NCBI RefSeq assembly: GCF_054482525.1
Contig: NZ_CM137006.1
Length of the DNA stretch: 64,000 nt
Strand: one strand, 5' to 3'
The position numbers and the translations under genes are program-made. Below the pieces are notes generated by a model that was not told the DNA's origin, did not search any database, and saw only the letters and a list, made by a program, of their open reading frames with translations. How positions within the stretch are numbered: position 1 is the first letter of the stretch; every line of letters starts with the position of its first letter. Positions 188-1,100 of the stretch are shown here, in pieces.

Positions 188-1100
188 GAATCTTGACCTT
201 TTTTGCTGTTATCGCCACTCCCTGCCGTGGAAGTCAGCTTAGAACAATGTACTCCCCCAGGACGGCGTTTTGAAGGTCTGCAGAATAAGATTTTGCCAGA
301 GTGGAAGGCTTGATTGTGCTGTTAATAACTTAATAATGGCAAAATAATGAGGTGTATATGCTTAATAATTAATGTTATGTAGTGAATTGTTCTGATTCTT
401 AATTGTGAGTGTGGTTTTTTTATCTGTAAGATAATTGTTTGAAAATGCCTCGTTTAAGAATTCACTAATGAATCGTGATGATGATATTTTCGCATTACGG
501 AGAGTTTAACAGCGTGATGATTTCCGAGGTGTCGTAATGGGTGCAAGGTGTGAAACTATTGTTAAGCGGGATTAATGAATGAGGATGATGCTAATTAATT
601 ATTATTTAATATTCAAAAAGGTTTTGTTGTGCTTATTAATAATAGAAGATTACTTTGCCTAACATAACATAACTTTGCATCAGATAATTCGCAATGACCC
701 TTATAAATAAAAGGTTTTTGGGGTAAAATGCTCGCATAAATGACGGATCCCTGCTCTTGATGCCGCCTCACCATTGCTGTTTGTACGTGTTCGCGTATGA
801 CCAGCGATGCTGCACGAGAGTGGAACAAGGACTCACATTTATACAAACACGCGCATGTCATAAATACAAAAGAGTGAGTAACTTAATAGATATGCGATTC
901 CTGAAGATATATTCTGTGATCTACTTCAGGCATTATAACGGAACAATGTGAGTCGCTTTTTTAGTGCAACTCATATGCATTTTTACTTTCGTCCGGGTTC
1001 CGGATGAAACTGCCAGGGAGGCACATTACAAATGGAATTGCTTGTTTGTGTGTGCACAGCATTAACCAGCTCAGTATGAGCCGCCAGTAAGTGATAATAT
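188..1100. promoter_or_regulatory. Long AT-rich divergent intergenic region between alaA and lrhA (lrhA promoter/leader)
   Basis: About 910 bp, very AT-rich, no credible ORF (only short overlapping ORFs without ribosome-binding sites); lies between divergent starts. Confidence 0.5.

Follow-up and report, generated by a model that had tools for sequence, protein, structure and literature searches.

Why should two divergently transcribed genes be separated by almost a kilobase of DNA that carries no annotated feature? The question is raised by the alaA-lrhA spacer at the start of the window analyzed here, i.e., the whole stretch of 64,000 nucleotides, which is 100% identical to Escherichia coli PCN033 and was annotated according to the RefSeq record of that strain. 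Positions 1..187 hold the beginning of the alaA coding sequence on the minus strand (start codon 187-185 by the RefSeq annotation of PCN033; translation MSPIEKSSKLENV...). The gene lrhA, which encodes a LysR-type regulator of 312 aa, lies on the plus strand at 1101..2039 (ATG at 1101; open reading frame (ORF) list and RefSeq annotation), and the 913 bp between them (188-1100) constitute the spacer. We consider it very likely that this spacer is a composite divergent control region, and its parts are already known from E. coli K-12. About 110 bp (188-297) would hold the alaA promoter with its short leader, and about 440 bp of AT-rich untranscribed DNA (298-735) the sites that control lrhA from upstream, probably together with those of alaA. 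The lrhA promoter would fire at A736, leaving the remaining 365 nt as the lrhA 5' untranslated region (UTR). The length of the spacer would thus result from a long leader (about 40% of the total) on top of a large upstream control region, and not from a hidden gene.

The original prediction, made from the sequence alone, described a spacer of about 910 bp that is unusually long, strongly AT-rich and marked by A-tracts. Its length was borne out, as the 913 bp make it the longest of 48 intergenic gaps in the annotated 50 kb around it (followed by gaps of 629 and 307 bp; median 14.5 bp). The spacer has a GC content of 38.0%, against 51.1% for the whole window, and its parts differ: 48% (188-297), 33.5% (298-557), 28.7% (558-735), and 42-43% (736-1100). 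Strong AT-richness therefore holds for 298-735 (29-34% GC) and does not extend to the transcribed leader. The stretch 300-719, at 30.5% GC, is matched in AT-richness by only 0.45% of the 420-nt windows. The A-tract signature did not stand up, since A/T runs of at least 4 nt are no commoner than base composition predicts (15 vs 11.6 +/- 3.2 in shuffled sequences, P = 0.19) and AA/TT dinucleotides in the spacer show no 10-11 bp helical phasing in a test for intrinsic curvature. A repeat search of the spacer found short two-copy matches only and no tandem arrays. A direct repeat, TAATGAATnnnGATGATG, at 466-489 and 573-596 (107 bp apart, 79% identity over 24 nt) may represent protein sites or chance. 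RefSeq places no feature inside the spacer in PCN033, K-12, or 30 sampled E. coli genomes.

The long spacer is ancestral, and is neither an insertion nor a strain peculiarity, because the same divergent gene pair with a spacer of similar length (764-1140 bp, median 943) is found in 78 other Enterobacteriaceae species. It is present in 5425 of 5426 complete E. coli genomes, in nearly all of them at 95-99% identity and 919 bp, and an intact spacer is missing from 42 of the 5425. In E. coli SCPM-O-B-12142 (L088 3667-5600), an IS1 element sits at spacer position ~354 and bounds a deletion that removes the rest of the spacer, lrhA, the whole nuo operon and all that follows up to elaD. As had been expected, K-12 MG1655 carries the same long spacer (2406642-2407560, 919 bp, ~97% identical to the window). 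The window differs from it by about 27 single-nucleotide polymorphisms (SNPs) clustered in 304-545 and by a 6-bp deletion, and is identical to it over 900-1100. Our comparative alignment comprised 79 spacers (the 78 species plus the window), in which the conserved blocks are 188-297, 551-646, 678-737, and 1018-1100, while 298-557 and 738-1017 have near-random identity. The distance between the -10 elements of alaA and lrhA is 457-480 bp in 74 of the 79 sequences although the central 250 bp are unconserved. However, the lrhA-nuoA spacer, used as a control, is even more constant in length (median 629, median absolute deviation 2), and on that ground we attach no special importance to the inter-promoter spacing.

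The lrhA promoter (701..729, plus strand) was assigned from its conservation and its fit to the published start site, and consists of a -35 element TTATAA (701-706), a 17-bp spacer and a -10 element TAAAAT (724-729). Both CTTATAAAT and the hexamer TAAGAT/TAAAAT/TAGGAT are conserved in all 79 sequences. Transcription starts at an A at position 736 on the plus strand, as determined from a published fusion primer and the K-12 alignment. In primer SM079 (Melamed et al., 2023), the PBAD +1 junction is joined to ATAAATGACGGATCCCTGCT, the sequence at 736-755 of the window, and window 736 aligns to K-12 2407012, 371 nt before the ATG, in agreement with the published 371-nt UTR. A different pair of lrhA hexamers given by Shimada et al., CTGCCA-16-TATGAT, has no match in the spacer at up to 2 mismatches and was set aside.

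The lrhA 5' UTR (736..1100, plus strand) is 365 nt long in the window and 371 nt in K-12, and the ACATTT at 836-841 is present in one copy in PCN033 and in two in K-12 and most E. coli. Melamed et al. (2023) described an "unusually long 371 nt" 5' UTR of lrhA in eLife, and found it in RIL-seq (RNA interaction by ligation and sequencing) chimeras with the small RNAs (sRNAs) UhpU, ArcZ, RprA, and McaS. In the same study, an lrhA-lacZ fusion was repressed by UhpU, ArcZ, and RprA, and UhpU pairing was proven with compensatory mutations in K-12. McaS gave the most chimeras with lrhA and no repression, and the authors suggested that McaS is instead inhibited (Melamed et al., 2023). Earlier, RNAs of 150 and 350 nt from upstream of lrhA had been studied by Hfq co-immunoprecipitation and Northern blots, and were shown to belong to a ~1.5-kb lrhA transcript whose level is up in an hfq mutant (Bilusic et al., 2014, RNA Biol). 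Further, MS2-RprA recovered lrhA mRNA, and RprA induced its decay (Lalaouna et al., 2018, Nucleic Acids Research). In the mechanism that we propose, the leader would serve as a post-transcriptional control module bound by Hfq, in which UhpU would pair at -16 beside the ribosome-binding site and block LrhA synthesis. ArcZ and RprA would repress as well, McaS would pair without repressing, and short leader fragments would accumulate.

Among the pairing sites, that of UhpU is anchored by a published mutant. In the lrhA-M1 gBlock, the wild-type GCCGCCAGT is replaced by GCCGCGAGT, which makes the mutated base window C1085 (-16). The pairing core CGCCAGU (1082..1088, plus strand), complementary to UhpU ACUGGUG, lies beside the ribosome-binding region, and the window is identical to K-12 there. 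The sRNA sites, at least that of UhpU, have been reported to be Escherichia-specific. By complementarity, a candidate ArcZ site, CCAGGGAGG, may be placed at 1013..1021 (plus strand; complementary to ArcZ UUUCCCUGG), and a candidate site for RprA and McaS, UGCACAGCA, at 1053..1061 (plus strand; complementary to UGCUGUGUG, common to both sRNAs). The exact positions for ArcZ, RprA, and McaS are thus putative. The start-proximal 85 nt of the leader hold the family-wide motifs AAAUGGAAUUGCUU, CACAGCA, and GUAAGUGA, of which CACAGCA is kept across the family and complements UGCUGUG, common to RprA and McaS.

The leader as a whole folds better than all 100 of 100 shuffles (z = -3.05), and RNAalifold found no consensus structure in the start-proximal leader of 77 species. 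A short hairpin, UCCGG-GUU-CCGGA (992..1004, plus strand), may have counterparts, judged by eye, at the same position of the aligned Citrobacter (ACUUG/CAAGU) and Salmonella (ACCUGG/CCAGGU) sequences, with a stem sequence that varies between genera. From the position of the conserved -10 element, a leader of 334-587 nt is implied in every one of the 79 sequences, with a median of 400. A long lrhA leader is therefore an old trait, though two thirds of its sequence drift.

Published Term-seq data place the 3' ends in the K-12 spacer only at 2406933/2406927 and 2406691, all on the lrhA strand (Adams et al., 2021). These map to window 815/821 and 1051, all inside the lrhA leader, and the same tables list no Rho-termination region in the spacer. 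The ends at 815 and 821, of the "orphan" class and corresponding to species of 80-86 nt, lie in the 3' arm of a long hairpin predicted at the 5' end of the leader (751..823, plus strand), and one or the other was detected in all three growth conditions. The basal stem of this hairpin is also predicted, with a different sequence, in a genome of the Escherichia cryptic clade and in E. albertii. It is not kept in the predictions for Citrobacter or Salmonella, and the median z outside Escherichia is -0.5. The 3' end at 1051 (plus strand; K-12 2406691) is 50 nt before the ATG and 316 nt from the start (322 in K-12). It has a Rho score of 1.06, scored "No" for Rho dependence, and lies 2 nt before the candidate RprA/McaS site.

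On the other side of the spacer, a sigma-70 promoter of alaA is predicted from conservation at 246..274 (minus strand), with a -35 element TTCAAA (274-269), a 17-bp spacer and a -10 element TACATT (251-246). This -10 element is identical in 75 of 79 sequences, and both hexamers are at least 90% conserved in the consensus of 35 displayed sequences. By conserved promoter geometry, alaA transcription would start near 239 and produce a predicted 5' UTR of ~52 nt (188..239, minus strand). The alaA hexamers of Shimada et al., TTAAGA-17-TATAAC (374-402), lie in an unconserved stretch and their -10 element is mutated in this strain, and we prefer the fully conserved TTCAAA-17-TACATT. Upstream of the -35 element, the alignment consensus contains a conserved element, CAAAATCTTnTnCTG (278..297, minus strand), which overlaps a match to the Lrp consensus at 281-295 (2 mismatches). 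The predicted alaA leader opens with a hairpin at 217-234 (minus strand; stem ACUUCC/GGGAGU, loop ACGGCA). In the 78 species, its stem pairs are possible in 94-100% of the distinct sequences, its loop hardly varies, and its outer pair can be A-U, G-C, or G-U (42/12/8). No Rfam family corresponds to this hairpin, our literature search found nothing on it, and a literature search for regulation of alaA by GcvB or other sRNAs found nothing either.

Between the two promoters, the AT-rich untranscribed DNA (298-735, ~30% GC) is conserved in its lrhA-proximal half. Its central block (298..557, 33.5% GC) is poorly conserved (identity to other species 0.22-0.48), contains the SNP cluster between K-12 and the window, and has no published Term-seq 3' ends on either strand. 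Further toward lrhA, family-wide conserved columns define an AT-rich module upstream of the promoter (551..646, plus strand, ~-185 to -90), TGTGAAA..TGTTAAG..ATTAATGA..AATTAATTATTATTTAATATT..TTAATAATA. Beside the lrhA -35 element, the conserved element CATCAGATAATTCGCAATGA (678..697, plus strand; identity 0.69 across 78 species) is a candidate regulator site. Several regulators have been connected with this DNA. Chromatin immunoprecipitation (ChIP) sequencing identified lrhA as a direct, activated target of Lrp, and the OmpR ChIP signal is raised at the lrhA-alaA spacer. Shimada et al. cited the "920 bp-long lrhA-alaA" spacer among long spacers with many transcription-factor sites, and reported RNA polymerase peaks in it by SELEX (systematic evolution of ligands by exponential enrichment). 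The Lrp consensus YAGHAWATTWTDCTR, allowing up to 3 mismatches, has 7 matches in the spacer, against 3.4 +/- 2.1 expected (P = 0.09), the best being at 281-295 and 380-394. Two Lrp-like sequences, GAGTACATTGTTCTA (240-254, minus strand) and TAGTGAATTGTTCTG (380-394, plus strand), are inverted to each other, and could be protein sites or chance. Binding sites for Lrp and OmpR presumably lie within the spacer, and the occupant of each upstream block can be proposed only tentatively. Transposon insertions in the spacer raise or abolish expression of lrhA or its counterpart pigU in E. coli ST131, in the K1 strain PA45B, and in Serratia, and since these insertions change LrhA/PigU output, they show that the integrity of the spacer matters for it.

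A control region of this composition could also be read mainly as a silencer bound by H-NS (or Fis), whose repressive filament keeps lrhA low and accounts for the length of the spacer. The original prediction had pointed in this direction by proposing nucleoid-protein regulatory DNA, and the AT-rich middle 440 bp, the Lrp ChIP-seq result and published repression by H-NS agree in part with that proposal. Specifically, a 2026 paper in Nucleic Acids Research reported that H-NS strongly suppresses lrhA in BW25113, and the AT-richness of 300-719 ranks in the lowest 0.45% of the window by GC content. Moreover, the untranscribed block has stayed AT-rich (27-41% GC) and of similar length in 78 species despite sequence drift, and insertions in the spacer can raise lrhA/pigU expression. 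However, the H-NS effect was seen as an expression level and may be indirect, and those insertions that point toward lrhA are accounted for by read-through from transposon promoters. The high-affinity H-NS motif TCGATAAATT has no match in the spacer at up to 2 mismatches, where shuffled sequences give 1.9 +/- 1.3, and A-tracts are neither in excess nor phased. The SELEX-based table of Shimada et al. carries no HNS flag for the lrhA-alaA spacer, though it gives one to neighbouring spacers, and our literature search found nothing on Fis at this spacer. In addition, 40% of the spacer is transcribed leader. On this balance, the silencer is a possible but not a favoured explanation, and of the nucleoid-protein idea the AT-rich middle and the reported H-NS and Lrp links stand, the A-tract signature does not, and neither the H-NS motif, an HNS flag nor a report on Fis was found.

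The remaining alternatives would place a gene or a gene product of its own in the spacer. An unannotated sRNA gene with its own promoter and terminator might be suspected in a spacer so long and unannotated, and an Hfq-bound RNA, ig-lrhA-alaA, was initially catalogued by Bilusic et al. as "intergenic". The same authors showed this RNA to be part of the lrhA transcript, and an Rfam scan of 1-2800 at E <= 1 gave no match in the spacer (one chance match fell outside it). A terminator scan found no terminator-like site in 188-1100, and Term-seq found neither 3' ends outside the leader on either strand nor a Rho-termination region, which makes such a gene highly improbable. In K-12, whose region is ~97% identical to the window and not identical, the 3' ends are confined to the leader, so that essentially no transcript other than the lrhA leader is seen. 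The small-RNA idea of the original prediction thus fails as an independent gene, and survives weakly in the form of leader-derived fragments. In this latter form, the 5' end of the leader would yield a functional sRNA or sponge, as the 80-86-nt and perhaps the 316-nt species, that acts in trans, for example by titrating McaS. The recurrence of the 815/821 ends in all three conditions fits such a product, as does their abundance: their reads compared with those at the lrhA mRNA 3' end were 78199 vs 46870 and 25150 vs 40881, and were tallied as at or above it in two of three conditions. The Hfq-bound 150- and 350-nt fragments, the 5' hairpin kept with different stems in three Escherichia lineages, and the abundance of McaS chimeras, without repression and with McaS inhibition suggested by Melamed et al., point the same way. 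Nevertheless, the RNA has no U-tract terminator and ends inside a stem, as decay intermediates do. The 5' leader is conserved outside Escherichia in neither sequence nor predicted structure, pairing of its 5' part with the four sRNAs is predicted to be no better than chance, and no phenotype has been reported. We therefore regard a trans-acting leader product as unlikely, and the narrower proposal, that the 80-86-nt RNA (736 to 815/821) is an Hfq-associated 5'-UTR-derived sRNA or a sponge such as one for McaS, as slightly less likely still. If true, it would give lrhA a second, trans-acting output. Finally, a small protein or a regulatory upstream ORF for lrhA could be sought in the several short ORFs of the spacer, including one of 28 codons that begins with ATG, spans 1004-1090 and stops 10 nt short of the lrhA ATG. 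Only short ORFs had been anticipated here, and rightly: the longest encode 82 aa on the minus strand and 64 aa on the plus strand, no spacer ORF has a Pfam match, and translated similarity across the 78 species is spread over several frames of both strands and confined to stretches of conserved DNA. ATG 1004 and its frame are not maintained beyond Escherichia, indel lengths are not divisible by three, and there is no convincing Shine-Dalgarno sequence. ORF 1004-1090 and the other spacer ORFs were accordingly rejected as coding, and a spacer-encoded peptide has very little to recommend it.

We thus return to the composite divergent control region as the preferred explanation, and several observations weigh against it in turn. 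The central ~250 bp (298-557) are left without an assigned function, and the data on transcripts and binding were all obtained in K-12 or other strains and not in PCN033, whose differences from K-12 include a SNP at 735, i.e., at -1 of the lrhA start. A simple consensus promoter scan called neither the lrhA nor the alaA promoter and found fewer promoter-like sites than in shuffles, and the hexamers predicted by Shimada et al. differ from our promoters for both genes. Likewise, duplexes predicted between the leader and the sRNAs, with full sRNAs and with seed regions, were no stronger than chance: the best energies lay between -18.8 and -20.7 kcal/mol, and the means for shuffled leaders between -17.5 and -20.1. 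Only the UhpU site is anchored, namely through the published sequence of the mutant.

The genes rpoS, csgD, and flhDC have long 5' UTRs on which several Hfq-dependent sRNAs converge. The lrhA leader resembles these in being the long leader of a master regulator, with Hfq, several sRNAs and pairing near the ribosome-binding site, and it has ArcZ, RprA, and McaS in common with rpoS, csgD, and flhDC. Anti-antisense activation of the rpoS kind is not known for lrhA, which has so far shown repression in all of its validated regulation. In addition, lrhA differs from this set in that Rho termination was not called in its leader in the published data. Compared with the K-12 lrhA 5' UTR, the same locus, the PCN033 allele has an identical start site, promoter and last 200 nt including the UhpU site, whereas it is 365 rather than 371 nt long, with 5 SNPs within or beside the leader (735, 783, 862, 894, and the hairpin change). 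At the level of the spacer, Shimada et al. grouped lrhA-alaA with csgD-csgB (755 bp) and nanC-fimB (~1.46 kb) as many-site spacers upstream of stress or lifestyle regulators, but lrhA-alaA has far fewer mapped sites, and much of its length is leader and not upstream DNA. The alaA-pigU spacer of Serratia and the regions upstream of hexA, pecT, and rovM belong to orthologous LysR regulators with the same divergent pair, and transposon insertions in the spacer over-express the regulator. Their sequences are unrelated to that of lrhA-alaA outside the conserved blocks.

Elsewhere in the window, the lrhA-nuoA spacer (2040-2668; 629 bp, 39% GC) is the second longest, and its length is near-fixed in 72 species (interquartile range 627-631). 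In the Term-seq data, "orphan" 3' ends of very high abundance lie 10-14 nt before the nuoA ATG (K-12 2405082/2405086, ~window 2655-2659), and another "orphan" 3' end is recorded at K-12 2405297. The published primary 3' end of the lrhA mRNA falls at ~2070, 31 nt past the stop codon and upstream of a hairpin followed by a T-run at 2081-2119 (GCCGCTGG...CCAGCGGCTTTTTTTT); with a loop of 14 nt, this structure escaped a simple scan. Between inaA and glpQ, at ~53972-54885, lies the 913-bp stretch with the lowest GC content in the window (31.7%). The pseudogene fragments in it derive from a LysR-family gene and from a frameshifted hypothetical gene, and the stretch looks like a decaying, strain-variable islet. 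At ~41356-42997 (record 2467483-2469124), a gene for a TnpB/InsQ RNA-guided endonuclease adjoins a truncated IS200/IS605 tnpA, beside a gene for a major facilitator superfamily transporter near yfaU.

None of the results here overturns the current understanding of this locus. The long spacer is real but already known, and combines two divergent promoters and AT-rich DNA for their control with a long, well-studied leader that sRNAs target. For genome scans it offers the lesson that an unannotated gap of 0.9 kb can consist of a published leader and a large promoter region, both without RefSeq annotation, and need not conceal a missing gene. As the sRNA sites are intact in PCN033, the regulation described for K-12 probably applies in this pig-derived pathogenic strain as well. 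LrhA controls flagella, type 1 fimbriae, RpoS, the K1 capsule, and CRISPR-Cas expression, and the DNA and RNA that set the level of LrhA therefore matter for motility and virulence.

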